Source: an uncultured Pseudomonadota bacterium (lineage in GTDB: Bacteria; Pseudomonadota; Alphaproteobacteria; Rs-D84). Taken from it: 64,000 nucleotides of DNA. The translations under genes were made by a program, and so were the position numbers. The notes beneath the pieces were generated by a model. The model was not told where the DNA came from and made no database searches. It worked only from the letters and a program-made list of their open reading frames with translations. The stretch is taken from positions 596,094-660,093 of the forward strand of contig CACWNX010000001.1 of the NCBI GenBank assembly GCA_902762295.1, in the 5' to 3' direction. Shown here in pieces: positions 1,443 through 63,703 of the stretch (within the stretch, counting starts at the first letter, position 1; each line of letters starts with the position of its first letter).

Positions 1443-4400
1443 ATGCCAGAAAATATTCGTGCAACATCAGATGAAAACTTAATCGCATTTGCCAAGAATA
1501 TTGCGACCACATATGGAAAAATGGGCTTGCTGGCAAAAAGGTTGGTGACCCAGGTCGTTACGTCAACCAATAATATAGATGCAGTTAATCGGGTTATATC
1601 AAAGGTTGGGCAACTTGACCCAGAAAGCAAAAAACTGTTTGGAAATTATTTTGTCGGCGAAAATCTGGAAAATCTGGAAATGGCGACACGTGCACCGGCA
1701 ATTCTGGCGGCGGCATACGAATATATATCTGAACACCGTGATGACAGTGACGAAATGCGTGAACGCTTTGCACGAATTGGCGCGCATGTTGATACATTAT
1801 CGGCGAATTTTGCAAACACCGGTGGCATGGTTGTAAATGGCGGTGAATGGCCATTGGTTGATACGAATAATATCGCCGATGCATACACAGGATTACTGCG
1901 TACATTCGCAGCACGACGCGCCGATATTGAACGTTCGGGTGATAATGCCAAGGTTGCTGAATTCAATAATAATTTAGATTTGTTGCAAACGGTTATTGCT
2001 GAATACGATCATAATTGGGGGCTTTCGAACCTGTATCCCGAACATGCAGGCAAACTTGAAGACCGCTGGAGTGATTTATGGGATGCGCTGAATCGTGCAG
2101 AATTAACCCCCGAATTAAAGGAAAAATTGCACCAGTGGGGGTTCACTGATGCAAAAGGTAACGAAATTCCGCAATTCAAAAAGAATGGTAAATTGGATAA
2201 ATCCGGACGCTTGGCGGCGATTATCGATTTAACTCGCCACGATATTGCAAAGCAACATGCTGCTCGTATTAATGAAAAGATTGATGAAGATGCGTTGGCT
2301 GTGGAATTGAACGAAAAAATTGAATTTAAACTTTATAACATGGCGGTTGCTGATAAAGTAGCATCGTCAGCCAAAATTCAAGCAATGCGCGAGCAAAACC
2401 CGGATTATGAACCTGACTATGAACCAGAAATTGATATAGCGCGTTTTAATTCAGATCAAGATTATCGTGCGGCAGTGTTAGATAAATTATCCGAATATGG
2501 TGCGATTATTTCTGATACAGGTTATAACGCTCAGGTTGATGCCGACGTTAACGCAACCGCGGGTTGGACGGCGCGTGTTAAATCTAAATTAAGAAATGGC
2601 GCAGAAAATCTCGGCGGTTTCTTTGAACGTGTGTTTCATCCGATTAGTCGTGTTGACCGTTTGGCAAATGTTCGTTTAGCAGGTAGTATGGTTGATAAGC
2701 GCACAAGACGTATCCAGTTTATTAAACGCCTTGCTAAAGGATTTGGCAGTGCATTCATATACAGTGCATTTTTGACTGTAATTGTTACTACGGTTGCGGC
2801 AACAACTGGTATGTCGGCGGCTGTTGCGACAGCCGTACTTGGTGGGTCGCTAGCAATAGGTATTGGGGTTAAACAGGTGTTACGTTGGCGCCGGGCGCAA
2901 CAGAAAGCAAATAAACCAACCGATATCCATGCGTTTTTATCGGATAAACGATTGGTTGCGTCACTTGGGGTCAGCGCGATTGCCGTCATCGCAATGTGTT
3001 TTGGTGCTGCTGGTATGACAGAATTAGCTCGCGGATTTGGTGGACTAGCATTAGGGGTTGGGGCTACCAAAAATGCTGTGGAGGGTGGCTTAGATACCTG
3101 GGCACGTGGTGGATCTACATTGCAGGCAATAGCTGCCGGTTTAGCAAATGCTGGTGCAGTTATCGCTGGTGGACTGACAGGTCGTGGTTTGACGAATCTT
3201 GGAATGGATTGGATCAATAAACTGTTCCCAAGAAATACATTCTTGCAGACTGAACACACTCATACGGAGCAACGTGAAGTCACAGAACAAGTTGAACACA
3301 CTCGGACTGTGACCGATTGGCCAACAGAAACAACGCATGAAGCCGCAGTAAGGAATTGGTTCGGTGCCCGTTATCCACATAATCCTGAAGTTATGCAGGG
3401 GCTTCTTGATGCTGTAAATCATTATAACGCAGATACTGGGGCTAATTTGGATCCATGGGCCGCATTGCGTGGAATTGCATTATCTGGTGGTGATCCAAAT
3501 CACGGTGTATATAATGCTCCCGATTGGTTTAATTCGCACGGGTTTGCGGCAGAACAAATTCATGATGCGGCTAATGCATTACATCCTGATGGAACTTACG
3601 ACCCAGTTGGAATGGAAACATTAAAAGATTTGGTGACCCATCACCTTAGTTCAAAGGGTTATGTGGGAGAAATGCCTGGACATACGATAAAAACAAGTAC
3701 AGACGTATATCAATCGCGTGGCGAGATGCCGACTCAACGTACTGAAACGTGGACTGAATTAAAGAGTCATGTGGAAAATTACGATAAAACTGATTACGAT
3801 AGTGTAAATGATGGTGCATATGCGGCAGGTGGCAATTACAATTCCAAAGTTTATCGTGGCCTTCGTGACCGTATTGGTGCGGTGGATAATTATCCATTTA
3901 ATTCACTGCGACCATCTGATCGTCGCAAACCGATTGAACCGATTATCAAACCAACGGATGATGAACGGGATGGTGATATAGATGTGTTCCCACCGGTTGT
4001 TGTACGCAGACCAGATTTGCCGGTAAAACGCCAAAAACCCGAATTACCGGCAGAACGCGAAAAACCTGAATTGCCGGTAAAACCAGGTGGCGATGTTGAT
4101 ATCTTCAAACCGGTACCAATTGAAAAGCCGGTCCCGAAACCGGTGGTTGTTCCAATCTTGGATGACGATGAACCCGAAGACAAGATTTTTGCCATTACTC
4201 GTCCCCAGGCCAAAGCATGGAAAGATTTGCAAGAACGTCTGAAAAAGGTTCGTGCAAAACTAAAAAAAGGCCCACATGGATCCAAGGCGGCAAAATTGCG
4301 CGAGGAAGAATCAAAATTGACATATTTTATCAAAAATTTATGCAACCAGATTGGTCATTATGATCCTGATGTCATAGATCTTGCATCCAAAGAGGCACTT

Positions 4401-5717
4401 TTGCGTGAAAACCTAAATAGAAAAAACGCATTGATTGAGGATAAGCCTGGTGATAATGCATCTCAATGGGAGGTTGTTGATTGGCGCGCTGAAATTGCAA
4501 GGTTGGATAAAAAGATCAACGAACAGATTAAAGAATTTGGTTCTGCAGCTGATGCTGTTGCACATGCGAGTGCGGATGAATCACGTTTGTATTATCCAAT
4601 GCCGGTTCCCGGCATCCAGGCGCAAAAGAAGGCTGCGCGTCGTGCCGAATATGAATCGCATCGTGCAGAAATCTTGGAAACCCCATTGCCAAAACCAACA
4701 TCGCGCGTAAAACCAACCCAAGACGAAATTGTTGAAGATGCTGAATTCGTACCCGAATTTGATTTGCCAGAATATGAAAGTCAATTCAACGATGATGTGG
4801 ATTTAGACATTTCAAATCATCGTGTGCCTAAATTAGATTTGGGTCGGTTCAAAAAACCAAAATATGATATTAGTGATGATGAAATTCGTGTAATTGGCGG
4901 CAATGATGAATTTGTACCAGATTTATCAAAAAACACGAATGAAAAACCGGTGTCGCACGTGATTCATGAAAAACCACGTCACAATGAACGCGGTGGTTTG
5001 GTCGCGGCATTGCGCAATGCGTATAACAAAATCAAGAAACGCGTTTCGGGTCGTGAATATTTTGTGCCGGAATCTTTGATTTCAATCGCCGAAAATGCAA
5101 ACTTGATGCACGATCCGGTTGCAACAATTAACGGTGTACCGATTCATTTGGTTGATTTAACCGGTAATAATACACCAATCACACAAAACAATGATCGTGC
5201 CGTTGTGGTTGTTGATATTCGTGGATTACGTATACCGTTCTATTTATCAAACGGTGACGAGGACGGCAAGGCAGGGCATTGGACACCGTTGCAATCATTG
5301 TTCCGTGATGGTAAATGGAAGTCGTTCATGTTCATCAATAATAAGTTATCACATATCCAGGCGTTGTCTATGATAGCCGATGCATTAGATAACAAACTTG
5401 GCGATATTCGTAACTATCGTGATATTGAATTGACCGCAGAGTACCAGGCCAGTGGCAAAGATGGTTTTGTCGGCGGCGCAGATGCAATCGAACATGTTAA
5501 CCCAGATACCATATTCCGATTGATAAACGGTGCAAGATACGAAAGTGTCAACAACCATATGATATTCGGGACATACAGTGACAGTCGTGTTAGTGCCGAA
5601 GCAGCATGGTTGCAAGAATATTTGGACGAAAATGGATTGCCATCTGATGATGTAGTAGAAGAAAATATGAATTTGCTGCAGAGATGGCGCGCAAGACGCA
5701 AATCCAAGCATGAATAG
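1443..5717 (+). CDS. very large (1424 aa) hypothetical membrane protein with soluble N-terminal domain, Gly/Ala-rich TM block and Pro-rich KPELP/KPVP repeats; no recognisable catalytic motif
   Basis: Long uninterrupted ORF, GGAGAGGAAT SD-like sequence before the ATG. Hydrophobic segments at about aa 420-560. Repeats PDLPVKRQKPELPAEREKPELPVKPGG...KPVPIEKPVPKPVVVP. Confidence 0.7.
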   Translation: MPENIRATSDENLIAFAKNIATTYGKMGLLAKRLVTQVVTSTNNIDAVNRVISKVGQLDPESKKLFGNYFVGENLENLEMATRAPAILAAAYEYISEHRDDSDEMRERFARIGAHVDTLSANFANTGGMVVNGGEWPLVDTNNIADAYTGLLRTFAARRADIERSGDNAKVAEFNNNLDLLQTVIAEYDHNWGLSNLYPEHAGKLEDRWSDLWDALNRAELTPELKEKLHQWGFTDAKGNEIPQFKKNGKLDKSGRLAAIIDLTRHDIAKQHAARINEKIDEDALAVELNEKIEFKLYNMAVADKVASSAKIQAMREQNPDYEPDYEPEIDIARFNSDQDYRAAVLDKLSEYGAIISDTGYNAQVDADVNATAGWTARVKSKLRNGAENLGGFFERVFHPISRVDRLANVRLAGSMVDKRTRRIQFIKRLAKGFGSAFIYSAFLTVIVTTVAATTGMSAAVATAVLGGSLAIGIGVKQVLRWRRAQQKANKPTDIHAFLSDKRLVASLGVSAIAVIAMCFGAAGMTELARGFGGLALGVGATKNAVEGGLDTWARGGSTLQAIAAGLANAGAVIAGGLTGRGLTNLGMDWINKLFPRNTFLQTEHTHTEQREVTEQVEHTRTVTDWPTETTHEAAVRNWFGARYPHNPEVMQGLLDAVNHYNADTGANLDPWAALRGIALSGGDPNHGVYNAPDWFNSHGFAAEQIHDAANALHPDGTYDPVGMETLKDLVTHHLSSKGYVGEMPGHTIKTSTDVYQSRGEMPTQRTETWTELKSHVENYDKTDYDSVNDGAYAAGGNYNSKVYRGLRDRIGAVDNYPFNSLRPSDRRKPIEPIIKPTDDERDGDIDVFPPVVVRRPDLPVKRQKPELPAEREKPELPVKPGGDVDIFKPVPIEKPVPKPVVVPILDDDEPEDKIFAITRPQAKAWKDLQERLKKVRAKLKKGPHGSKAAKLREEESKLTYFIKNLCNQIGHYDPDVIDLASKEALLRENLNRKNALIEDKPGDNASQWEVVDWRAEIARLDKKINEQIKEFGSAADAVAHASADESRLYYPMPVPGIQAQKKAARRAEYESHRAEILETPLPKPTSRVKPTQDEIVEDAEFVPEFDLPEYESQFNDDVDLDISNHRVPKLDLGRFKKPKYDISDDEIRVIGGNDEFVPDLSKNTNEKPVSHVIHEKPRHNERGGLVAALRNAYNKIKKRVSGREYFVPESLISIAENANLMHDPVATINGVPIHLVDLTGNNTPITQNNDRAVVVVDIRGLRIPFYLSNGDEDGKAGHWTPLQSLFRDGKWKSFMFINNKLSHIQALSMIADALDNKLGDIRNYRDIELTAEYQASGKDGFVGGADAIEHVNPDTIFRLINGARYESVNNHMIFGTYSDSRVSAEAAWLQEYLDENGLPSDDVVEENMNLLQRWRARRKSKHE

Positions 5718-10343: not shown

Positions 10344-11480
10344 TTATTGTTTTTCTAAATTTCTTTTTAATTGCGCAATCTGTGCGGCCAGGTCTTTACC
10401 TTTGTTTAAAACAGACCCCGTTGCGCGTTTTTCGGATTCAGAAATAAATGTTTTAATTGTAGCACGTAAAACCGCATTTTTAGATTTTTCTGTTCCCAAT
10501 TCGCTTTCCAGTTCTGCAATTTGATCTTGCAAATCACGATTTTCACGGTTGCGTTCATCTAATGTCTTGCGAGCATTGGTTGCATATTGTTTGTTTTGTT
10601 CAGATTCTTGTTGCATTTTTTTTAATTCTTGTTCCGCCATTGACAATTCAATAGATGCCTGGGTTTCAAATTGTTGTACATAATCTCGCTGACCATTATT
10701 TAGTATGCTTTCTAAAGAATATTTTTGTTCTGTTTTTTTTGCCAGTGTTCGTATTGCGTTCATATCATCAGCGGATGCACCTTGACGTTGCATTATGCGC
10801 AGTATCTCCTCAACCAACCCCGGCAATGTCAGAACACCGGTATTGCGTATTCTTTCTATATTTGGTGCGTCTTTGTCCAATTCGTGTTTAAGTTCACTAT
10901 CAACCTTTACTGTTTGGTCATTAAACATCTGAATCAGTTCATACGGCGCATCACGATAATATTTGGATTGTTGATTATTTGCCAGTGCAACCGCGTAATT
11001 ATAAACATCATACGGTTTTGCCACCGGATTCATCGCAATCAACCGTTTAATATCAAATTTCAATTCCGGTGATGTTGCCCGCTCTTCAATTACTTTCAAT
11101 AATCGTAACGCATAGTGTTGGTTTTTAATTTTATTGTTTTGAGTCATATGTACAACTGCTAGATACGCATCGTTCAAATTATGTTGTTTATTATCATCGG
11201 CGTATAACACTGTAATAGTTTTGACGATATTCAAGAAATCTGCGGCCTCGGGGGAATCATTATAATCATAATCTTTACGCGCATTCCAATATTGTTTATA
11301 CAACTTTTCGCCGTTTGGACCAAAAGAAGGGGCACTCAGACTGGGCAATTCTGGATTCTGCGCAACCATATTGGGAAAGTAACCTATACGATCTTCGTGT
11401 TTATCTTGTGCGGTAAAAAATGTTTCCAAAAATTCATTAAGATTCATATATTTTGACTGGTTTTGCTTTGGTTCCAACAT
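10344..11480 (-). CDS. hypothetical 378-aa protein with C-terminal coiled coil (ORFan, effector-like)
   Basis: Long ORF. C-terminal 100 aa is heptad-rich (ELKKMQQESEQNKQYATNARKTLDERNRENRDLQDQIAELESELG...). No enzymatic motif recognised. Confidence 0.55.
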   Translation of the reverse strand: MLEPKQNQSKYMNLNEFLETFFTAQDKHEDRIGYFPNMVAQNPELPSLSAPSFGPNGEKLYKQYWNARKDYDYNDSPEAADFLNIVKTITVLYADDNKQHNLNDAYLAVVHMTQNNKIKNQHYALRLLKVIEERATSPELKFDIKRLIAMNPVAKPYDVYNYAVALANNQQSKYYRDAPYELIQMFNDQTVKVDSELKHELDKDAPNIERIRNTGVLTLPGLVEEILRIMQRQGASADDMNAIRTLAKKTEQKYSLESILNNGQRDYVQQFETQASIELSMAEQELKKMQQESEQNKQYATNARKTLDERNRENRDLQDQIAELESELGTEKSKNAVLRATIKTFISESEKRATGSVLNKGKDLAAQIAQLKRNLEKQ

Positions 11481-11537: not shown

Positions 11538-11757
11538 GTAAAAACACCGCACAAGGCGATGTTTTTATTTTTATCCTGGCGCACCCAGAAGGATTGTTCG
11601 CGTTGCTCACCACACGTAAGACTCGAACTTCATTTCATTCGTTCTCGTCAACTATCGTGTCGAACCAGGGTTCGCATCCCCGTTGTTCCAACGGTAAAAA
11701 CAAAAACACCGCACAAGGCGATGTTTTTATTTTTATCCTGGCGCACCCAGAAGGATT
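11538..11757. repeat. direct repeat (~56 bp, copies at 11538-11595 and 11700-11757) bracketing a 103-bp insert at the 3' end of tRNA-Arg(ACG)
   Basis: Identical strings aaaaacaccgcacaaggcgatgtttttatttttatcctggcgcacccagaaggatt at both positions. The repeat equals the tRNA 3' terminus (T-loop to CCA) plus its downstream flank. Confidence 0.85.
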
Positions 11758-11815
11758 CGAACCCTCAGTCTTCTGATCCGTAGTCAGACGCTTTATCCAG
11801 TTGAGCTATGGGTGC
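11739..11815 (-). tRNA. tRNA-Arg (anticodon ACG)
   Basis: Acceptor GCACCCA/TGGGTGC, anticodon loop CTACGGA, T-loop TTCGAAT, encoded CCA. Confidence 0.9.
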
Positions 11816-23624: not shown

Positions 23625-23885
23625 TTTCAAAGTACTTCGGCAACAAAAGTTGCCTCGCCTCGCAACCCTTCGGGTTCTCGCCCCTTTGCCGACAAAATTA
23701 AAAACCGACCTAACGGACGGTTTTAAAATTTTGGTGCGAGCAAAGTACTTCGGTGGCATACGCCACCTCGCCTCGCAACCCTTCGGGTTCTCGCCCCTTT
23801 GCCGACAAAATTAAAAACCGACCTAACGCCCTTTGCCGACAAAATTAAAAACCGACCTAACGGACGGTTTTAAAATTTTGGTGCG
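23625..23885. repeat. tandem ~120/140-bp repeat units ending in duplicated tRNA-Gly 3' terminus, between guaC start and tRNA-Gly
   Basis: Unit caaagtacttcgg...ctcgcctcgcaacccttcgggttctcgcccctttgccgacaaaattaaaaaccgacctaacggacggttttaaaattttggtgcgagcaaag occurs twice (23625-23744 and 23745-23885). The second unit has an extra internal 34-bp duplication. The last 25 bp equal the tRNA-Gly 3' end plus flank. Confidence 0.85.
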
Positions 23886-23955
23886 AGCAAAGGGGCTCGA
23901 ACCCTCGACCTCAACCTTGGCAAGGTTGCGCTCTAGCCAACTGAGCTACGCTCGC
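23879..23955 (-). tRNA. tRNA-Gly (anticodon GCC)
   Basis: Acceptor GCGAGCG/TGCTCGC, anticodon loop TTGCCAA, T-loop TTCGAGC, encoded CCA. Confidence 0.9.
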
Positions 23956-33499: not shown

Positions 33500-35296
33500 A
33501 TGATGAAAATAATACATAAAATAAAAAATTTCTTTCGCGGCGATGCATCAAACGCACGCATTAAATGGTCACTGTATGGTCGCATATGGCGTGAAATCGG
33601 TCGTCCCCAATGGAAGTGGTTGGCACTTGGGATTATTGCAACAATCGGTGCCGCCGGTGCCGAAGGGTATTCAATCACACTGGTACAGCGTGTTGTTGAT
33701 AATGCATTCATAGATAAGAATATGCAGTCAACATATATTGTTGGGTTGCTGATTATCATGGCGTTCGGGGCCAAAGGCGCATTTAACTATGCGCGGTCGT
33801 TACTTATGGCTAAGGGCGGTTTGGCGGCCAGTGCATCATTGCAAAAACGCATATATTCGCATATGGTGCATATGGGAATTGCGGGATTCTATGGCGATGG
33901 TGTTGGAAAGCATTTGAATTATTTCTATGTTCAATCGGGCGCGGTGTTGCGTTTAGTAACGGAAAACATTTTATCACTGGTGCAACAGTTGGCAACACTG
34001 GTTATCACATTAACCCTGATGATATACTATGCACCCCAGGTATGCGCGATTCTGATTTTCTTGGTGCCGGCGATAATTGTGCCGTTGCTGATAATTATGC
34101 GTCGCCGGCGCAAACTGTCACGGCAATCATTTGGTATTGCAAACACTGTGTCCCAGCATTTAAACCAAACACTGCGCGGAATCAAAACCATTCAGGCATT
34201 TGCAAACGAAGATGTCGAAACACGCAAGTTCGCCGATGTTTTGCATCAATCTATGATAAATTCGTATAAGACGACCCAGGCCGCCGCGATTCAATCACCG
34301 TTATTGGAACTGATGATTTCAATCGGACTGTGTTTCGCATTGATTTTAGGTGGACATTTTATTGTGAATGGCGCGATTACAACCGGTGATTTTACGGCAT
34401 TCTTGCTGGCACTGATTGCGGCGTACAAACCGGCCAAGGCGATTACCGGAACCGGGGATACGGTTCAACATGGCTTACTGGCGGCAGAGGTTTTGTTTGA
34501 TTTCTTGGACACCAAACCAACAATTCGCAACAAACGCGATGCCAAGGATTTACGCGCCGTCCAACCATCGGTTGAATTCAAAAATGTTGATTTTTCATAT
34601 ATTGACGGTGAACAAGTTCTGCACGATATAAACCTGCATGTTGCCCCGGGTCAGGTTTGCGCCCTGGTCGGTCCCAGTGGTGGTGGCAAGACAACAATGT
34701 TTAACCTGATTGAACGTTTCTATGAACCAAATAATGGTTTTGTTGCGATAAACGGTACAAATATTCAGAAATATACTCTGGATTCGTTGCGTCGCAATAT
34801 TGCCGAAGTTTCCCAGGATGTATTTTTATTCAACGATACGATAGAGGCGAATATTAAATACGGTGCGCCACATGCATCGCATGACGAAGTTGTCGCGGCG
34901 GCACGCGCGGCGAATGCCGATGAATTTATTTGCGCATTGCCACATGGCTATGATTCCTGTGTCGGTGAAGGTGGTGCGTTATTGTCAGGTGGCCAGAAAC
35001 AGCGCATCGCGATTGCACGTGCAATATTGAAAAATGCACCGATATTGTTGCTGGACGAGGCGACATCCGCATTAGATACCGAGAGTGAGAAACTGATTCA
35101 ATCGGCATTAAAAGATTTGATGCAGGGACGCACGACATTTGTAATTGCGCATCGGTTGTCTACAATTCTGGATGCTGATATCATCTGTGTTATCAAGAAC
35201 GGTCACATTGTTGAACAGGGAACCGATGCTGAATTGGTCGCGATGGACGGCGAATACAAAAAACTGCGCGACATTCAATTCAAGAGCAAAAAATAG
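33500..35296 (+). CDS. ABC exporter, fused TMD-NBD (MsbA/lipid A exporter-like)
   Basis: Six-helix TMD followed by an NBD with Walker A GPSGGGKTT, signature LSGGQKQR, Walker B ILLLDEAT. Start at the MMKII ATG (33500) rather than the GTG at 33425. Confidence 0.85.
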   Translation: MMKIIHKIKNFFRGDASNARIKWSLYGRIWREIGRPQWKWLALGIIATIGAAGAEGYSITLVQRVVDNAFIDKNMQSTYIVGLLIIMAFGAKGAFNYARSLLMAKGGLAASASLQKRIYSHMVHMGIAGFYGDGVGKHLNYFYVQSGAVLRLVTENILSLVQQLATLVITLTLMIYYAPQVCAILIFLVPAIIVPLLIIMRRRRKLSRQSFGIANTVSQHLNQTLRGIKTIQAFANEDVETRKFADVLHQSMINSYKTTQAAAIQSPLLELMISIGLCFALILGGHFIVNGAITTGDFTAFLLALIAAYKPAKAITGTGDTVQHGLLAAEVLFDFLDTKPTIRNKRDAKDLRAVQPSVEFKNVDFSYIDGEQVLHDINLHVAPGQVCALVGPSGGGKTTMFNLIERFYEPNNGFVAINGTNIQKYTLDSLRRNIAEVSQDVFLFNDTIEANIKYGAPHASHDEVVAAARAANADEFICALPHGYDSCVGEGGALLSGGQKQRIAIARAILKNAPILLLDEATSALDTESEKLIQSALKDLMQGRTTFVIAHRLSTILDADIICVIKNGHIVEQGTDAELVAMDGEYKKLRDIQFKSKK

Positions 35297-35397
35297 CAAT
35301 CTTAAATTAAAAATGCTGTTTTTGTGATTTTTGCTTGATTTTTTATAAAACTGTGTCATAATTTGCCCCGAACTGCTGGAAAAAGACAGAAAGTTCT

Positions 35398-35473
35398 GGG
35401 GCTATAGCTCAGTTGGTAGAGCAAATGACTTTTAATCATTGGGTCCAGGGTTCGAGTCCCTGTGGCCCCACCA
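35398..35473 (+). tRNA. tRNA-Lys (anticodon TTT)
   Basis: Acceptor GGGGCTA/TGGCCCC, anticodon loop CTTTTAA, T-loop TTCGAGT, encoded CCA. Confidence 0.9.
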
Positions 35474-35676
35474 AAAATCAAAACCGACCTTGTGTCGGTT
35501 TTTGTTTTTTGATTGGGAAAACAAGACGAGAACCCGTGGGTTCGACACGATAGTTGGTGAAAACAAGCCTTGGCGCAGTTTGAACCTTACGAGTGGAAGG
35601 GTCCCAACACGCAGTGTTGGGATGTGCAATCCCTGTGGCCCCACCAAAAATCAAAACCGACCTTGTGTCGGTTTTT
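35458..35676. repeat. direct repeat (46 bp, copies at 35458-35503 and 35631-35676) bracketing a ~125-bp insert downstream of tRNA-Lys
   Basis: ccctgtggccccaccaaaaatcaaaaccgaccttgtgtcggttttt twice: the tRNA 3' terminus plus its terminator hairpin. The second copy is preceded by gggtcc, which matches the tRNA variable loop. Confidence 0.85.
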
Positions 35677-36385
35677 ATTTTTTATTTTCGTTTTTTATCG
35701 GTGGTGGCGCAACCTGGGTCAACATCTGGTCAAAATTCTTAGAAATTTCGGCGGTTGAATCCAGCCAATCGGTTATTTCGTCTATAATATTTCGTATATG
35801 GCGCGCAATTACGCGCCGACCACCCCCAAGGTGATGCGTGCCAACCAGTCGCGACATATCACGTGTTAGTTCCGTCATTATGCGCATTTGTTCCGGCGAA
35901 AAAACATTTTCCTTTGCGTACCCCAGAATAAGATTTTCCAGTTCTTCGTAATATTGGTGCAGTAAATTCATATTGTCCATTCGCAACGACAATTCGCGTG
36001 CAATGTGCGCCTCGGAAAGGGCGCGCATAGAATTTACAGCACCGCGTGTCAGCCGCCCACGCATCTTTATCATCTTGCGCAGAATAATCAGCGTATGCAA
36101 CATAATCGTATTGATTTTATCGGTCATGCCATTAATCAGGGTTTCTTGCAATCGTCGCGACACCCGGTTTGTCGTGTAATCGTAAAGCAAAAACACCAGC
36201 GGTATCGCCAACAATGATGCGGAAATATTGCTAATCAAACCTTCAACTGCCGGGTCCCGGACATTGTCCAATGATACCGAAAACAGAACAATTCCGCCGG
36301 CGATGGATATTGCATACGGCAAAGTTTTCAGCAAAAAATTACGAATTTTGTTTCTCATGGCATAAATTTTGCCAAAAATACCCAC
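35675..36385 (-). CDS. hypothetical membrane-anchored protein (236 aa)
   Basis: Two N-terminal TM helices, then a soluble helical region. No motif recognised. Confidence 0.45.
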   Translation of the reverse strand: MGIFGKIYAMRNKIRNFLLKTLPYAISIAGGIVLFSVSLDNVRDPAVEGLISNISASLLAIPLVFLLYDYTTNRVSRRLQETLINGMTDKINTIMLHTLIILRKMIKMRGRLTRGAVNSMRALSEAHIARELSLRMDNMNLLHQYYEELENLILGYAKENVFSPEQMRIMTELTRDMSRLVGTHHLGGGRRVIARHIRNIIDEITDWLDSTAEISKNFDQMLTQVAPPPIKNENKK

Positions 36386-36485
36386 ACCCCGCTATAAGAT
36401 AAAATCCCCGAACGCGCTTGAATTTCCCCGCATTTTGTACTATAATTATGGGTGTGTGGTGACATCAAACCAAAGGGGTCAGACA

Positions 36486-38999
36486 ATGACAATGAGTATG
36501 AAAAAATTTCTTGAAACATATTTTAAACTTGTTCGCTTGAAAGAAATGCGGTCTGATGATATCGAACGCTGGGTTCAATTTGAATCTTTGGTAAAAAAAG
36601 CCGACCTTACAAAAAACATGGCCGATTGGGTCAAGTTGTTAGAAAAGGATCCAATAACTGGTAATATTACCATAGACCCCGCGGATGGTTTCTATAAATT
36701 GATAAATTTAGACCCGAATGAATTAAGTGATAATGACTGGAAAGAATTATTTCTTAACACACAAAATGCTATGTCGGGACTGGTTGCACGACGCAAATCT
36801 TATGCAAACTTAGGTGAAGATGATATAGTAAATTTTATAGATGATAACAAAGACCGTTTTGAAAAAGCATGGGGCGACACAAAAGAGGCAACGCCAGAAA
36901 CAGAAGCGGCCATTGATTATTTAGTCAATAAACTAGATGATTTATTGAAAAAAAATCCTGATTTGTTTAGACAGCTTGGTTTATCCTATGTTAATATACA
37001 TGAACTAAAAGCTAAAGTTGCGCGTAAAGATTATAATAAAGCAGAATTTCAGAAAGAGATACGTGATATTGCGCAAAAATATACAGAATTTGTTTATGAT
37101 GATAGTAAAAAAATTGCCGGTATCGATAAAGACGCTGAAAATCTGGCTGATGAGTTTCGTGCCAATAATGTTGGATTTATCAGTAATGATTATGCCGGTT
37201 GGATTACCCCAGAGGTTGATGCTGCTAAATTGGCAGATTTTAAACTGCATTACCCAGATTTTATGCAAACATTGTATAAGAATCAAAAGGTTCTTGATGC
37301 GTTTAAACAGCACGAAGGCCAAAACAATCAGATATCTGCTGCTATTGCCGTTGCCAAAGAAAAAGTTGATTATGCAAATCCAGAATCAAAAGATTATGTC
37401 CAGCCAAAGCGTTCGGACGAACTTACGTTATTTCAACAAGTAAAGAAATACGTTGGTGATACATATGAAAATTTATTTGAAAAATATACAAAGTTACGTG
37501 GAGATAGAATATACCTTAATCCGGCAACAAAAGATGTTTGTAAAGCCATAGATAAAGCAGGCATAAAACCAACAGATGGATTAGGAAAAATTGTTGAAAC
37601 CGCATCAAACATAAAAGCAAATTTAAAAGGCAAACATAATGCCAGCGCTGCGTTTGAATGGTTAGAATCAACACTTAACGATTTTAAAAATGATTTAAAT
37701 ATGGCAAAATCTTTTGCAGGCGCTTTAAAGAACGGACGTCAAATGAAAAATTTGATCGCGGAACTTATTATGAAAGCCGCCAAGGATGCGCAAGATCCAA
37801 AAAACGGGAAAACAAAAGAAGATGTTATAAAAAATGTCAAAATTGCTATGGAGGTTTTATCCATCATTAAATATGCCAACACAACAAGCAAAATTATGGG
37901 TGCAATTAAAGACGACAAAGAATTATTCAACTTTATGTCAAACAAGGACTTGTCGTGGAATAAAAATGCGGGCGTACAGTTCGTAACAAGCGCGCTAGAT
38001 AAAAGTGTCCGTGCCGCTTTCATTGGTATTGGTTATGGTGCAACTTTACTAACAAATACTATCAGAAAATCTGGAAGTAAATTTAATCAGAAATTCAAAA
38101 ACAAAGGCATGAAAAATTCTTACAAGACATGGAACACAAAAAACACCGCATACAAAGGTGAGCTTAATACGCGAGTGGCTGCAGATGCCGCCGGCACTTC
38201 GGCGGATGCGATGAATCGCGATGCAAATGTTATGAGAAAAGGCGCTGCTTTGGTTGGGTTGGGTGTTGCCGGTGGTGGCGCGGCGGATGTTGAATTAAAA
38301 CAAAAAGAGTTAGATACTACGGGGCGTCAAGATGAATTAAAGGCTCAGTATGCACTTGAACCATATGAACAATTATTACAACAATTACAACAAGTCCTTG
38401 ATATCAAGAAAAAATTAGAACCGATTGAGGCACAAGAAGCCGCCCTGCGAGCGGCTGTAATGGCAGCAGGACCAGATAAAGACGTAAAAGTTGCAGAATT
38501 AACAGCATTGTTAAATTCAAAAAAAAGTCTTGTGGAACAATTGGAAAATTTCAGGGATGTTATTGATTTAGGAATTGTTGGTCTTGGCGTCGTAGATATT
38601 GATGCAGTTACTGTTGCTGATATTGAAGCAATAATGGATCATATTCAGAATGTTGATCCCGGTTATCAGAATGCTGTGTTAGATTATGAATTAATCAGTC
38701 AAGAAAACGCAGAAAAGCAACAACATATAAATGATTTTCGCAAAGCGACAGAAGAAATAAAAAATTCACAAGCAAGTATGGATCGTCGTGCAAAAGAATT
38801 AGCAGATTGGGATAAAAAACACATTGATGTATACAATGAATTAATGGCGTATTGGGATTTCTTGGAAACTGGGCGCGATTCTCATACAGGAAAGTTATAT
38901 AGCTGGCGTCCGGGTAATGCCGAAAACAAACAAAAACCTATGCGTGCCGATGCATTAGCTAAGTTTGCTGCATTCCGCAGTGGATACCATGCGGCGTAA
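36486..38999 (+). CDS. large hypothetical protein (~838 aa) with extensive coiled-coil/Lys-rich regions and a Gly/Ala-rich hydrophobic segment
   Basis: AAAGGGG SD before ATG 36486 (MTMSMKKFLE...). Heptad-rich segments (ELKAQYALEPYEQLLQQLQQVLDIKKKLEPIEAQEAALRAAV). GAALVGLGVAGGGAA segment. No enzymatic motif. Confidence 0.6.
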   Translation: MTMSMKKFLETYFKLVRLKEMRSDDIERWVQFESLVKKADLTKNMADWVKLLEKDPITGNITIDPADGFYKLINLDPNELSDNDWKELFLNTQNAMSGLVARRKSYANLGEDDIVNFIDDNKDRFEKAWGDTKEATPETEAAIDYLVNKLDDLLKKNPDLFRQLGLSYVNIHELKAKVARKDYNKAEFQKEIRDIAQKYTEFVYDDSKKIAGIDKDAENLADEFRANNVGFISNDYAGWITPEVDAAKLADFKLHYPDFMQTLYKNQKVLDAFKQHEGQNNQISAAIAVAKEKVDYANPESKDYVQPKRSDELTLFQQVKKYVGDTYENLFEKYTKLRGDRIYLNPATKDVCKAIDKAGIKPTDGLGKIVETASNIKANLKGKHNASAAFEWLESTLNDFKNDLNMAKSFAGALKNGRQMKNLIAELIMKAAKDAQDPKNGKTKEDVIKNVKIAMEVLSIIKYANTTSKIMGAIKDDKELFNFMSNKDLSWNKNAGVQFVTSALDKSVRAAFIGIGYGATLLTNTIRKSGSKFNQKFKNKGMKNSYKTWNTKNTAYKGELNTRVAADAAGTSADAMNRDANVMRKGAALVGLGVAGGGAADVELKQKELDTTGRQDELKAQYALEPYEQLLQQLQQVLDIKKKLEPIEAQEAALRAAVMAAGPDKDVKVAELTALLNSKKSLVEQLENFRDVIDLGIVGLGVVDIDAVTVADIEAIMDHIQNVDPGYQNAVLDYELISQENAEKQQHINDFRKATEEIKNSQASMDRRAKELADWDKKHIDVYNELMAYWDFLETGRDSHTGKLYSWRPGNAENKQKPMRADALAKFAAFRSGYHAA

Positions 39000-46488: not shown

Positions 46489-46660
46489 AGAATTACACCC
46501 AAATATTATTGGTTCAATTCAACAATAGCAAAGTCAAAAATTTCATTCAACACAAAAATGCATCCGCACCAACCAAAGGAATTTTTACAACAAAAAAATC
46601 TGCGCCAGTTTCCTGTGCGCAGATTTTATTCACTCTTTCGAAAGAGCAATTGGTGGGTTA

Positions 46661-46737
46661 TGTAGGACTCGAACCCACGACCAAAGCGTTATGAGCGCTC
46701 CGCTCTAACCAACTGAGCTAATAACCCACGGCGGTTA
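46661..46737 (-). tRNA. tRNA-Met (anticodon CAT); elongator type, could alternatively be the lysidine-modified tRNA-Ile2
   Basis: Acceptor GGGTTAT/ATAACCC with a paired 1:72, so not initiator. Anticodon loop CTCATAA. Encoded CCA. Two downstream hairpin terminators. Confidence 0.8.
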
Positions 46738-51513: not shown

Positions 51514-51640
51514 TTTATTACCTTTTTGTTCCTGTTATGTTTCATATATTATATTCCGGGTTTCTGGTGCCAGGCACCCGGCGGCCCCGCAAAAAAGCTG
51601 AACAGATATAATCAACAATCGCCAATTATATCAAACCTAA

Positions 51641-53669
<2,029 letters not shown>

Positions 53670-55474: not shown

Positions 55475-55663
55475 TGGCGCACCCGGCGCGATTCCCTCGG
55501 GCAAATGTCCTGCGGGGCATTCGTTAGCGCTTGAACTTCGTTTTACTCGTTCTCGCTTACTCATTGTCGAACGCGACGCGTTCAAATCGCGGGGCGCACA
55601 GCAATAAATTCAAATCATCATTGCGGGATAATTTAAATTTATTGGCGCACCCGGCGCGATTCG
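55475..55663. repeat. 20-bp duplication of the tRNA-Arg(CCG) 3' terminus (55475-55494 and 55644-55663) bracketing a ~149-bp insert
   Basis: tggcgcacccggcgcgattc occurs twice. The insert contains a T-arm-like gcgttcaaatcgcggggcgca and a tcgttctcg...gtcgaac segment resembling the Arg(ACG) and Lys inserts. Confidence 0.8.
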
Positions 55664-55719
55664 AACGCGCAATCCCCGCCTTCGGAGGGCGGTGCTCTAT
55701 CCAGTTAAGCCACGGGTGC
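55644..55719 (-). tRNA. tRNA-Arg (anticodon CCG)
   Basis: Acceptor GCACCCG/CGGGTGC, anticodon loop CTCCGAA, T-loop TTCGAAT, encoded CCA. Confidence 0.9.
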
Positions 55720-60460: not shown

Positions 60461-61618
60461 ATGAGAATATCGCGTCGGAATCTTTTGCAAATTACGGGCG
60501 TTGGAATTGTTATTGCGGGGCTTTTGCCGCGTATGGCGTTTGCTGCGCGTAATTCATTGAAGTCTATGCGCACCGGGGTCCAGCCGAATGGTAAAACACG
60601 TCTTGTAATTGAAACGGCAAACCGCCCGTCATATACATTGGTTTACGGTGAAAATACATTGACGGTTAAGTTATCAAATACGCACGGGGACAAATCTGTA
60701 AATGCAAAGTTGGCATCGGGCACATTGGTAAAATCTATAAGTCAAACCCAAGTAGGCGATTCACTGAATATTGTTGCAGATTTAAAAAAACATGTCGCCG
60801 ATATTCCAAAGAATCAAATTATGATTTTAGAACCAAATGGTGATAATGATTATCGGTTGGTTCTGGATTTTGTGGCGGGAACATCGGGGACCAAGGCAAC
60901 GGCAAAAAACGAAAATGATAATGCAACTAAATCTGCAACAAAGAAGCATATAATTGTTGTTGATGCGGGACATGGTGGCAAGGACCCAGGCTGTATTGGA
61001 CGTGGCGGAACAAAAGAAAAAACGATTGTTTTATCGGTTGCACGCAAATTGCGTAATGCATTGCAATCTGCGGGTTTTGGTGTATATTTAACGCGAAATG
61101 ATGATACATATTTAAAATTGAATGAACGTTCTGCGATTGGTGAAAAACGACGCGCAGATTTGTTCTTGTCAATTCACGCGAATGCGAACCCAAGTCGTGC
61201 AATGAAAGGATTTTCTATTTATACATTGTCCGAAAAGGCATCTGACGAAGAGGCACAAAAACTTGCAGATGCCGAAAATGCAGCGGACAAGATCGATGTT
61301 TCTGGGTTTGAAAGTTTTTCCAAAGATATTCGTATCGCCTTATCATCACTGCAACAACACGCCGTTGCAGAAATGTCCGAAGAATATGCAAATGGTTGCG
61401 CACGTGCGTTTAATCGCGCAGGAATAGAGCAACAGCCTGGACCTGCGGTTCGTCATGCGCCATTGGCAGTACTGCGTTCGACTGTGCCGGGTGCGCTGAT
61501 TGAATGCGGGCATTTATCAAATTCAGCCGAAGAAAAATTACTGAAAAGTTCTGCGCACCAGGATAAATTAGTCGCGGCAATTGTAAAATCTGTAAAAAAT
61601 TATGATTTTGAGGCATAA
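60461..61618 (+). CDS. amiC: N-acetylmuramoyl-L-alanine amidase AmiC-like (Tat signal, AMIN domain, Amidase_3 domain)
   Basis: Twin-arginine signal SRRNLLQITGVGIVIAGLLPRMAFA. AMIN-type N-domain. Catalytic domain begins IIVVDAGHGGKDPG. Confidence 0.85.
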   Translation: MRISRRNLLQITGVGIVIAGLLPRMAFAARNSLKSMRTGVQPNGKTRLVIETANRPSYTLVYGENTLTVKLSNTHGDKSVNAKLASGTLVKSISQTQVGDSLNIVADLKKHVADIPKNQIMILEPNGDNDYRLVLDFVAGTSGTKATAKNENDNATKSATKKHIIVVDAGHGGKDPGCIGRGGTKEKTIVLSVARKLRNALQSAGFGVYLTRNDDTYLKLNERSAIGEKRRADLFLSIHANANPSRAMKGFSIYTLSEKASDEEAQKLADAENAADKIDVSGFESFSKDIRIALSSLQQHAVAEMSEEYANGCARAFNRAGIEQQPGPAVRHAPLAVLRSTVPGALIECGHLSNSAEEKLLKSSAHQDKLVAAIVKSVKNYDFEA

Positions 61619-61865
61619 AATCAAAAAATCCGCGATTGCGGATTTTTAACATTTTAATCTGGCGGAGATAGGTTTCTGTCCTTGATAAACAATAATCAAA
61701 ATCTATAAAAATCTTGTTCCGGCGATTTTTATGATTTTTCTAATTGTTCATCTGCGTATTGTGCGCTGCGTTCTGTGGGACTCGCACACATCCCCCTATC
61801 TCCTTGGTTAAAATCAAAAAATCCGCGATTGCGGATTTTTAACATTTTAATCTGGCGGAGATAGG
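61617..61865. repeat. 56-bp direct repeat (61617-61672 and 61810-61865) bracketing a 137-bp insert downstream of tRNA-Ser
   Basis: aaaatcaaaaaatccgcgattgcggatttttaacattttaatctggcggagatagg twice: the tRNA 3' end plus its terminator hairpin. The insert ends in ccccctatctcc, an inverted copy of the tRNA acceptor/T-stem. Confidence 0.85.
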
Positions 61866-61943
61866 GGGATTCGAACCCTCGATACAGTTTCCTGTATACG
61901 CGATTTCGAGTCGCGCGCATTCAACCAGCTCTGCCATATCTCC
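61853..61943 (-). tRNA. tRNA-Ser (anticodon CGA), long variable arm
   Basis: GGAGATA acceptor, anticodon loop CTCGAAA, extended variable arm, T-loop TTCGAAT, encoded CCA. Confidence 0.9.
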
Positions 61944-63447: not shown

Positions 63448-63643
63448 GCTTTTTTATAATGGGACGGATGACCGGATTGTTTCACCAATATTGTCCCATT
63501 TGCTTTCGCAAACCGGCGCACTTCCGTTCGCCTTGGGTCAATATTTCGAACCGGCTGCTTCGCCGGTTCAAACCCGAACATTCACGATTATAAAAAATCG
63601 CCCCAAATGGGACGCTTTTTTATAATGGGGCGGATGACCGGAT
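63448..63643. repeat. ~31-bp duplication of the tRNA-His 3' end plus flank (63448-63478 and 63613-63643) bracketing a ~134-bp insert
   Basis: gcttttttataatggg(a/g)cggatgaccggatt twice. The insert contains the tRNA-like fragment cagccggttcgaaatattgacc (compare the His T-arm gccggttcgaatccggtc). Confidence 0.8.
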
Positions 63644-63703
63644 TCGAACCGGCGACATTCGGTACCACAAACCGACGCTCTAACCAGCTGAGCTACATCC
63701 GCC
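63626..63703 (-). tRNA. tRNA-His (anticodon GTG) with encoded G-1
   Basis: Extra 5' G pairing with C73 (the His identity element). Anticodon loop TTGTGGT. T-loop TTCGAAT. Encoded CCA. Confidence 0.85.

Follow-up and report, generated by a model that had tools for sequence, protein, structure and literature searches.

A previously undescribed family of short, structured non-coding elements linked to tRNA genes in Enterousia-related Alphaproteobacteria

The insert that follows the tRNA-Lys(UUU) gene in a 64,000-nt stretch of an uncultured Rs-D84 alphaproteobacterium (GenBank assembly GCA_902762295.1, contig CACWNX010000001.1, positions 596,094 to 660,093; here called the window) belongs to a hitherto undescribed family of structured, non-coding, tRNA-linked elements of about 100–170 nt, which we call family Y. 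Together with three further families of the same layout (X, Z and W), we consider family Y to represent short, non-coding, non-autonomous insertion elements that settle behind tRNA genes in Candidatus Enterousia and its relatives, a reading to which we give a probability of about 0.5. A literature search found no description of such elements. An earlier note on this DNA had read the locus as a duplicated tRNA-Lys 3′ end whose T-arm had been replaced during site-specific integration; the duplication is real and non-random, while the integrase explanation fares poorly.

The insert behind tRNA-Lys and its relatives

The tRNA-Lys(UUU) gene is intact at 35398-35473 (+; 75.5 bits). Alignment bore out the duplication of its 3′ end plus terminator as a 54-nt direct repeat at 35457-35510 and 35630-35683 (+), identical at 53 of 54 positions (98%), that begins at tRNA nt 60, takes in the 3′ strands of the T-stem and acceptor stem and the CCA end, and continues into an A-tract, a terminator hairpin and a T-run. 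The first copy holds tRNA nt 60-76 and a terminator hairpin at 35480-35502, the second holds tRNA-Lys nt 60-76 (35630-35646) and a hairpin at 35653-35675, and both hairpins are bidirectional. The insert between the two copies is 119 nt long (35511-35629). Within 35250-35750, no promoter-like site was found other than that of tRNA-Lys itself (35335-35362, +; TTGATT-16-CATAAT with TG).

Reading along the plus strand, the insert begins with a 5′ arm, GATTGGGAAAACAAGACGA (35511-35529), a decayed inverted tRNA-Lys 3′ end with a GAC-GA motif at its end, which pairs with the 3′ fragment no better than background. Hairpin P1 follows (GAACCC-GT-GGGTTC, 35530-35543), its 3′ strand being the T-stem/T-loop sequence GGGTTC(GA), and leads into the 18-nt core GGTTCGACACGATAGTTG (35539-35556). 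Hairpin P2, GGTGAAAAC ... GTTTGAACC (35556-35586), has nine positions around a central tandem G.A internal loop and shows strong covariation. After the conserved junction motif TTACGAGTGG (35587-35596) comes a right end that we term class B (35597-35629), made up of AAGGGT, hairpin P3 (CCCAACAC-GCA-GTGTTGGG) and ATGTGCAA. The core takes part in pairing, CAC with GTG at 35593-35595 and GT with AC at 35589-35590.

This anatomy changes how the joint is to be read. The string on which the earlier note was built, gggtcc-CAACACGCAGTGTTGGGATGTGCAAT-ccctgtggccccacca, is present in the window, and the 26-mer proposed from it as part of an attP site (35605-35630) occurs there once. Both ‘gggtcc’ and the 26-mer minus its last base lie within the class-B right end. 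The sequence said to have replaced the T-arm is not unrelated filler but the stem-loop CAACAC-GCA-GTGTTG, and other copies vary its sequence and keep its pairing; the 26-mer therefore corresponds to the variable hairpin P3 plus the right end of a conserved, covarying element rather than to an attP arm. Likewise, ‘gggtcc’ had been taken for retained variable-loop bases and belongs instead to GTGGAAGGGNCCC, a fixed motif of one element subclass that is also present behind tRNA-His (variable loop ATGTC), with a close variant, GTGGAAAGGGGCCC, behind tRNA-Arg-CCU (variable loop TGATG). Since the class-B motif occurs behind His and Arg tRNAs with unlike variable loops, no tRNA-Lys variable-loop sequence is retained and the resemblance is a coincidence.

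The 18-nt core is indeed common to the tRNA-Arg(ACG) locus, with exactly two matches in the window, 35539-35556 (+) and 11649-11666 (−), a number reached in 0 of 100 shuffles. It lies not inside the 26-mer but about 50 nt upstream, within the insert. The link between the two loci holds and is wider than the core, as the Lys and Arg(ACG) inserts can be aligned along most of their length and the whole architecture is common to both, including a repeat at Arg(ACG) of its own (56-63 nt).

To collect relatives, we scanned one genome per GTDB species for an exact 17-nt core, which returned 79 loci. Counting the two in the window, 54 of 82 core matches are element copies, and all 54 come from gut or rumen alphaproteobacterial metagenome-assembled genomes of Candidatus Enterousia and relatives (more than 40 genomes). 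Enterousia belongs to Rs-D84, an order with genomes of about 0.75-1.0 Mb (PMC12306168). Where the fetched sequence reaches far enough, every copy but one (L048; L numbers denote individual loci) has a tRNA gene upstream on the same strand, about 65 nt before the core or farther where another element intervenes. Nine tRNA species precede family Y: Lys-UUU, Lys-CUU, Glu-UUC, Val-UAC, Pro-CGG, His-GUG, Arg-UCU, Arg-ACG and Arg-CCU. The proposed joint inside the T-arm is real and is seen well beyond this one locus, as the element ends and tRNA nt 59/60-76 start at the same T-loop position in more than 50 copies and all nine species. A covariance model built from 51 distinct copies gave 68 matches in 64 related loci, including cores that deviate from the search pattern, and four matches in the window, where the two family-Y copies score 126 and 110 bits.

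The copies share one layout: tRNA and terminator, 5′ arm, P1, core, P2, junction motif, right end, tRNA nt 59/60-76, and a terminator. The arm stands directly after the T-run and reproduces the 3′ end of the local tRNA as its reverse complement, the one exception being T-loop dinucleotide 57-58 (GA in place of TC), so that the motif GGA(T/C)-GA-GAACC results. P1 has the general form GAACC(N)/(N)GGTTC, with the T-stem/T-loop sequence GGTTCGA as its 3′ strand, and the general core is CACGATAGTTG. P2 keeps nine positions, with the central tandem G.A internal loop in many copies, and is followed by CTTACG(T/A)GTGG. Right ends are either class A (TGAGY-NNN-RCGAACA, with a longer hairpin inserted mid-way in some copies) or class B (AAGGGN, hairpin P3, ATGTGCA). 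Direct repeats range from 13 to 81 nt, and nearly all examined copies are closed by a terminator, even if its sequence is unlike that of the first. The body is always preceded by TTCGA, but was seen only within a partial tRNA-end copy and never at a generic TTCGA. The tRNA gene itself is intact beside its element.

Insertion, exchange and folding

The tRNA-Lys locus lies between an msbA-like gene and a conserved gene for a 236-aa protein. Orthologous sites are empty, with only the tRNA and terminator, in L082, L086 and L088, and filled in the window, L081, L083 (the same sequence as L073), L085 and L087 (the L002 contig). Because both states occur, the locus records an insertion and not the random decay that the earlier note had kept as its fallback. 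The unit of promoter, tRNA and element is inverted relative to the two flanking genes in some genomes (window 35300-36385 compared): the window, L073/L083 and L081 have it one way and L082, L085-L088, L004, L018 and L067 the opposite way.

Copies also occur in tandem, with two family-Y elements behind tRNA-Val (L021), X then Y behind tRNA-His (L022, L066) and a pair of family-Z units in the window; among L085, L012, L054 and L030 there are copies that are nested, truncated or chimeric. Identical P2 variants stand behind different tRNAs, and one tRNA locus can carry different variants among species. The body in L083 is 96% identical to that of the window while the neighbouring protein is 59% identical, and the body in L081 is 75% identical with a neighbouring protein at 80%. 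Judged from these alignments, body identity is decoupled from host divergence.

While bodies are common to different tRNA loci, the ends are local, as the 3′ fragment matches, and the arm resembles the reverse complement of, the adjoining tRNA. The 3′ fragment is 91% identical to the local tRNA over nt 60-73, is perfect in 22 of 35 copies and tracks species-specific T-stem variants, whereas the 5′ arm reaches 67% at its best gapped alignment. Arm pairing was scored by duplex energies, since the arms carry indels that make an ungapped register uninformative. Arms paired with their own fragments at −12.4 kcal/mol on average, compared with −7.7 for shuffled arms and −8.8 for fragments of other tRNA types. 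In addition, the arm holds the complement of tRNA G59 where the fragment has A59, and in L081 the inverted copy is almost perfect and goes on into the trailer. These three observations show that the arm was templated locally. Young arms pair with CCA as well, and in both window copies arm pairing is at background.

At a locus, the first and second terminators resemble each other in some genomes (window, L081, L067, L009) and not in others (L073, L004), and they differ from genome to genome. Set side by side, the window and L083, which have the same decayed arm, show that the repeat was homogenised or replaced after the arm was made. Terminators behind different tRNAs and in different species resemble each other in loop and stem (ACCGACC-TTGT-GTCGGT, CGCC-TTGT-GCGG; window 35480-35502 and 11710-11735, and L013, L036, L059, L067, L073 and L085), and as terminator types swap first and second position among genomes, terminators may travel with the elements.

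Two sets of loci depart from the usual 3′ fragment. Behind tRNA-Pro(CGG), six species (L014, L027, L029, L052, L058, L060) have the fragment ATCCTGTGACGTAGACCA, which differs from the adjacent tRNA at 4 of 14 positions and to which the 5′ arm pairs partly through G:U; no source tRNA for it was present among the loci collected. Behind tRNA-Glu, the family-Y fragment breaks off after GGGG and gives way to ACAATTA(A/C)GAAAATC, like a family-W body (L003, L011, L032, L064, L074). W precedes Y in L023, L061 and L069, while L030, and probably L047, where the contig ends early, have W joined to a truncated Y. From their sequences, the Glu-locus and W/Y combinations look like nested insertions.

The evidence for structure comes from comparison among copies. 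Helices from RNAalifold and from a structure drawn by hand agree (CAC/GUG, GU/AC, P2, P2b and the class-A mini-hairpin), and 89.7% of cells in the 51-sequence alignment pair. Cells changed on both sides number 97 against 39 in shuffles, and the covariation score is 0.310 against 0.157 for shuffled alignments (0 of 500 reach it), with slid controls at or below 0.137. P3 hairpins vary in sequence and length with pairing kept, and P2 and P3 have no sequence relation to each other. In 46 of 51 copies the tRNA-sense strand gives the body its more stable fold, the difference averaging 4.4 kcal/mol; P3 hairpins contain 15 G:U among 144 predicted pairs, and P2 outside the two internal-loop positions contains four G:U and zero A:C. 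The arms gave no strand signal (58 G:U and 66 A:C). Taken with the promoter-like site of the tRNA being the only one found, the folding bias and the G:U and A:C counts indicate that the structured strand is the tRNA-sense strand. Any RNA of the Lys element must then come by read-through of the first terminator, and we infer that element RNA probably starts in this way at the tRNA promoter and stops at the second terminator. An imperfect palindrome with one favoured strand and with structure conserved above sequence is also what is found in folded single-strand recombination sites such as integron attC and those of the CTX-phage type, and selection on structure together with the strand bias points to either a co-transcribed RNA or a single-stranded DNA form.

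Origin of the copies and rival explanations

We propose that new copies would arise by replicative template switching without a dedicated integrase. The nascent strand would fold back on the palindromic terminator and copy the tRNA 3′ end in reverse, giving the 5′ arm, then switch to an existing element at another tRNA locus through microhomology in the T-loop sequence GGTTCGA, which is near-universal, and finally go back, via (A)TCC, to the 3′ end of the local tRNA and its terminator, giving the direct repeat. Later recombination among copies may shuffle bodies and homogenise the repeat. A shared body with local ends, junctions in sequence common to most tRNAs (GGTTCGA and (A)TCC), and an arm abutting a palindromic terminator fit such a three-step route. 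The tRNA-Ser(UGA) gene of L087 (about 2680-3010; the L002 contig) shows a mirror-image arrangement, in which a 78-nt copy of the upstream region and the 5′ half of the gene (to the anticodon loop) is followed by an 80-nt element, CTTACGAGTC...GGTGAGCC...GGAGCGAAC, and then by the complete gene, with an element of another family after that tRNA. We count the 8-nt microhomology at the joint of this 5′-half duplication, AAAACCGC, as support for template switching.

Several points weigh against insertion elements spread in this manner. The 5′ arm has decayed while the 3′ fragment is kept, which needs gene conversion or selection on the fragment. Template switching alone leaves the conservation and covariation of the body unexplained, and the intermediate it predicts, a fold-back duplicate without a body, was not seen. 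The tRNA-Asp gene has a canonical T-loop and carries no element in 12 related loci. Part of the invariance of the core is a selection artefact, because the loci were gathered with the exact 17-mer (other conserved motifs are unaffected by this). Single-sequence folding energy is no better than that of shuffles (z 0.06 and −0.35), on either strand, which is why the structural evidence has to be comparative. Lastly, the search for enzymes covered the 64-kb window, and a trans-acting enzyme encoded elsewhere in the genome is possible.

The alternative that survives best, possible though unlikely in our view, is that the elements are host small-RNA genes: functional structured RNAs made by read-through from the tRNA promoter and inherited mostly vertically, with the tRNA-like 3′ end and terminator serving processing or stability and the arms being the remains of a closing stem. 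The covarying hairpins with their conserved unpaired motifs, the tRNA-sense bias, the terminator that ends nearly all examined copies and a 3′ fragment that stays identical to the tRNA, CCA included, as the arm decays are all consistent with this, as is the occupation of the same tRNA loci in dozens of species. Six of nine tRNA genes in the window keep elements in a lineage with genomes below 1 Mb and a coding density near 90% (PMC12306168). Small RNAs from tRNA 3′ external transcribed spacers and tRNA-like RNAs resemble the elements in lying on the same strand directly downstream of the tRNA, in having a terminator and in ending as an acceptor end with CCA, and at the tRNA-Lys copy likewise no own promoter was found. 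Unlike these RNAs, the elements lie beyond the first terminator, duplicate the tRNA end and are polymorphic, tandem and nested, and their acceptor-like stem often seems not to be kept. Vertical host genes also sit badly with the empty orthologous sites, the copies that are tandem, nested, truncated or chimeric, the sharing of one layout by at least four unrelated bodies, and element similarity that does not track host relatedness. The supposed closing stem pairs at background in both window copies, and the absence of an own promoter at tRNA-Lys and of an Rfam match counts against a gene of this kind.

An integrase scar, as the earlier note had proposed, would make the repeats the attL and attR sites of a tyrosine-integrase prophage or island at the tRNA-Lys T-loop, deleted down to its arms and perhaps mobilised in trans. 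We consider this improbable. Such elements do share the T-loop joint, the order of intact tRNA, element and directly repeated tRNA 3′ part, and arrays that resemble tandem integrations. In L084, a distant relative, tRNA-Lys(UUU) is followed directly by genes for a 521-aa tyrosine integrase (PF00589) and an Imm_superinfect protein (3291-5067), so that this tRNA is there the site of a conventional island or prophage; tblastn against all loci found no homologue of this integrase in the others. Among the 56 open reading frames of at least 110 aa in the window, Pfam found only housekeeping functions, with no integrase, transposase, reverse transcriptase or HUH enzyme and no match to PF00589, the family that includes XerC/D. 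A scan of 2.9 million viral contigs with the 17-nt core and the 16-nt right end gave chance or coding matches only, plasmid collections and circular forms lying outside that search. Family Y also differs from tyrosine-integrase elements in its size of 100-170 nt, in a repeat that may include host-specific terminators, in an inverted left end that the classical model does not predict, and in an interior whose covariation points to selection on intrastrand pairing and not on protein-binding duplex sites. One body with nine tRNA ends would moreover need nine integrase specificities.

Slimmer still is the prospect of a guide-RNA-like unit, with the body as scaffold and the 17-18 nt of tRNA 3′ end as guide for an RNA-guided protein encoded elsewhere. 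The order fits, a scaffold of about 90-110 nt being followed by 17-18 nt identical to the tRNA gene and then by a terminator, a layout that resembles guide RNAs with a 5′ scaffold and a 3′ guide, namely the omega-RNA of TnpB, Cas12 CRISPR RNA (crRNA) and the tRNA-homing crRNA of type V-K CRISPR-associated transposons. The match is kept perfect as the rest drifts, and the TTCGA before every body resembles a target-adjacent motif. In window coordinates, about 59 bp separate the T-loop GGTT from the start of the element downstream, a distance that we take to be like a known transposon spacing. The window contains no candidate effector and no TnpA/TnpB-type gene, however, and four different scaffolds would need four effectors. 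No sequence similarity to such RNAs and no Rfam match to IS605-related or other guide-RNA families was found, and the unit would target an essential tRNA gene of its own genome. Chance similarity, an assembly artefact or neutral decay of a simple tandem duplication is hardly credible: nearly all genomes searched are metagenome-assembled and repeats can be mis-assembled, but the architecture recurs in more than 40 independently assembled species genomes, on contigs from four repositories, with compensatory changes and with two core matches in none of 100 shuffles.

Other candidates were set aside on simpler grounds. A group I or II intron would be larger and have domain features, a retron would have a reverse transcriptase nearby, and a split or permuted tRNA is at odds with the full tRNA present. 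A tmRNA (transfer-messenger RNA) piece was rejected because the real alpha-type tmRNA is at 51553-51895, and a mini CRISPR-associated transposon because the insert is far too small for Tn7-like ends. For a retroviral-type primer-binding site the 18-nt length of the fragment fits, yet the 5′ arm matches the tRNA 3′ terminus poorly where such a site depends on that match (in the window copy, for example, TGATTGGGAA vs TGGTGGGGCC), and families Z and W have other junctions. At the Rfam 15 gathering threshold only tRNAs and the tmRNA were reported, and a permissive search gave no credible match over 35511-35629.

Other tRNA loci, known systems and significance

Six of the nine tRNA genes in the window carry elements of the one layout, distributed over four families, and the Ala-GGC, Ala-UGC and Met genes carry none. 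The five besides tRNA-Lys all lie on the minus strand. One is the sister family-Y copy with a class-A right end behind tRNA-Arg(ACG) (11540-11815; 126 bits), which shows the same order of terminator, insert of about 100 nt, and second tRNA 3′ end with terminator. Its parts are the tRNA gene (11739-11815), repeat copy 1 (11702-11757), the 5′ arm and P1 (11662-11695), the core (11649-11666), P2 (11620-11649), the right end TTACGTGTGGTGAGCAACGCGAACA (11595-11619) and repeat copy 2 (11540-11595). A diverged relative of family Y spans 55475-55719 (22 bits, E 6e-4), comprising tRNA-Arg(CCG) (55643-55719), an arm and body (55494-55600) and a 19-nt 3′ fragment (55475-55493).

Family X is found behind tRNA-His(GUG) (63626-63702) in the span 63460-63702, with an arm and body at 63479-63586 and a 3′ fragment at 63460-63478; it gives a weak match to the covariance model and has flanks like those of family Y (GGTTCGA ... 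GGTGAAACA|ATCC) around a different central hairpin. Family Z, behind tRNA-Gly(GCC) (23879-23955; whole span 23628-23955), has a short body and a joint within the T-stem 3′ strand, and consists of two tandem short units (23741-23806 and 23628-23693), each with an inverted arm GTCGGCAAAGGGGCGAGAACCC, and a 3′ fragment at 23732-23745. Family W, behind tRNA-Ser(CGA) (61853-61943; whole span 61616-61943), has an arm and body with a long AT-rich hairpin (61673-61805) and a 57-nt repeat of 3′ fragment plus terminator (61809-61865 and 61616-61672).

Elsewhere in the window, a PIF1-like helicase gene (PF05970, 46821-48089, +) adjoins the element-free tRNA-Met (46651-46727). Three large open reading frames have no Pfam match, encoding products of 1424 aa (1443-5717, +), 876 aa (36369-38999, +) and 378 aa (10344-11480, −), the latter two of coiled-coil, low-complexity appearance. 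The tmRNA gene is of the alphaproteobacterial permuted, two-piece type (51553-51895, −; 169.8 bits), and the 5′ end of the open reading frame called for the Obg GTPase (51656-52933, +) overlaps it, so that the true obg start is probably further downstream.

When compared with known mobile DNA, the elements resemble miniature inverted-repeat transposable elements (MITEs), repetitive extragenic palindromes (REP/REPIN) and Rickettsia palindromic elements, which are also short, non-coding, multi-copy, hairpin-forming and enzyme-less, are extragenic near terminators, occur in Alphaproteobacteria and conserve structure above sequence. Unlike MITEs and REPINs, family Y has no family-wide terminal inverted repeats shared with an insertion sequence (IS) or RAYT gene, since its 3′ fragment matches and its 5′ arm resembles each local tRNA; its association with tRNA 3′ ends is strict, its orientation fixed, and its repeats of 13-81 nt stand in contrast to a short fixed target duplication. 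Miniature elements of the IS200/IS605 type differ too, as P2 and P3 are unrelated and there are no similar subterminal hairpins at both ends. Quasipalindrome or microhomology template switching likewise produces an inverted flank copy centred on a hairpin (here the terminator) and junctions in short shared sequences (GGTTCGA and ATCC here, AAAACCGC in L087). It is known as a source of mutations, but is not known to carry one conserved, structured sequence into numerous loci and species.

We tentatively raise a broader possibility, which we hold to be unlikely but worth stating: the elements could be either a new, tRNA-sparing class of self-copying elements that build their ends from the target and move through a single-stranded RNA or DNA intermediate folded on the tRNA-sense strand, or a natural scaffold-plus-guide RNA for an RNA-guided protein. 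In the self-copying case, the target-built ends would consist of the 3′ end of the tRNA with its terminator, copied once inverted and once directly. On both readings, four such families would stand behind the majority of tRNA genes in a genome below 1 Mb.

The family is absent from Rfam, and island finders will mis-call such loci as integration scars or pseudo-tRNAs. In a genome of less than 1 Mb, two thirds of the window's tRNA genes (6/9) nevertheless have behind them an additional 100-350 nt of structured DNA, belonging to four families or more. If the elements are selfish, their tRNA-sparing spread would be a further, new way for mobile DNA to be drawn to tRNA genes, perhaps without a dedicated recombinase; alternatively, this host-dependent gut bacterium may have a group of structured RNAs tied to its tRNA genes.

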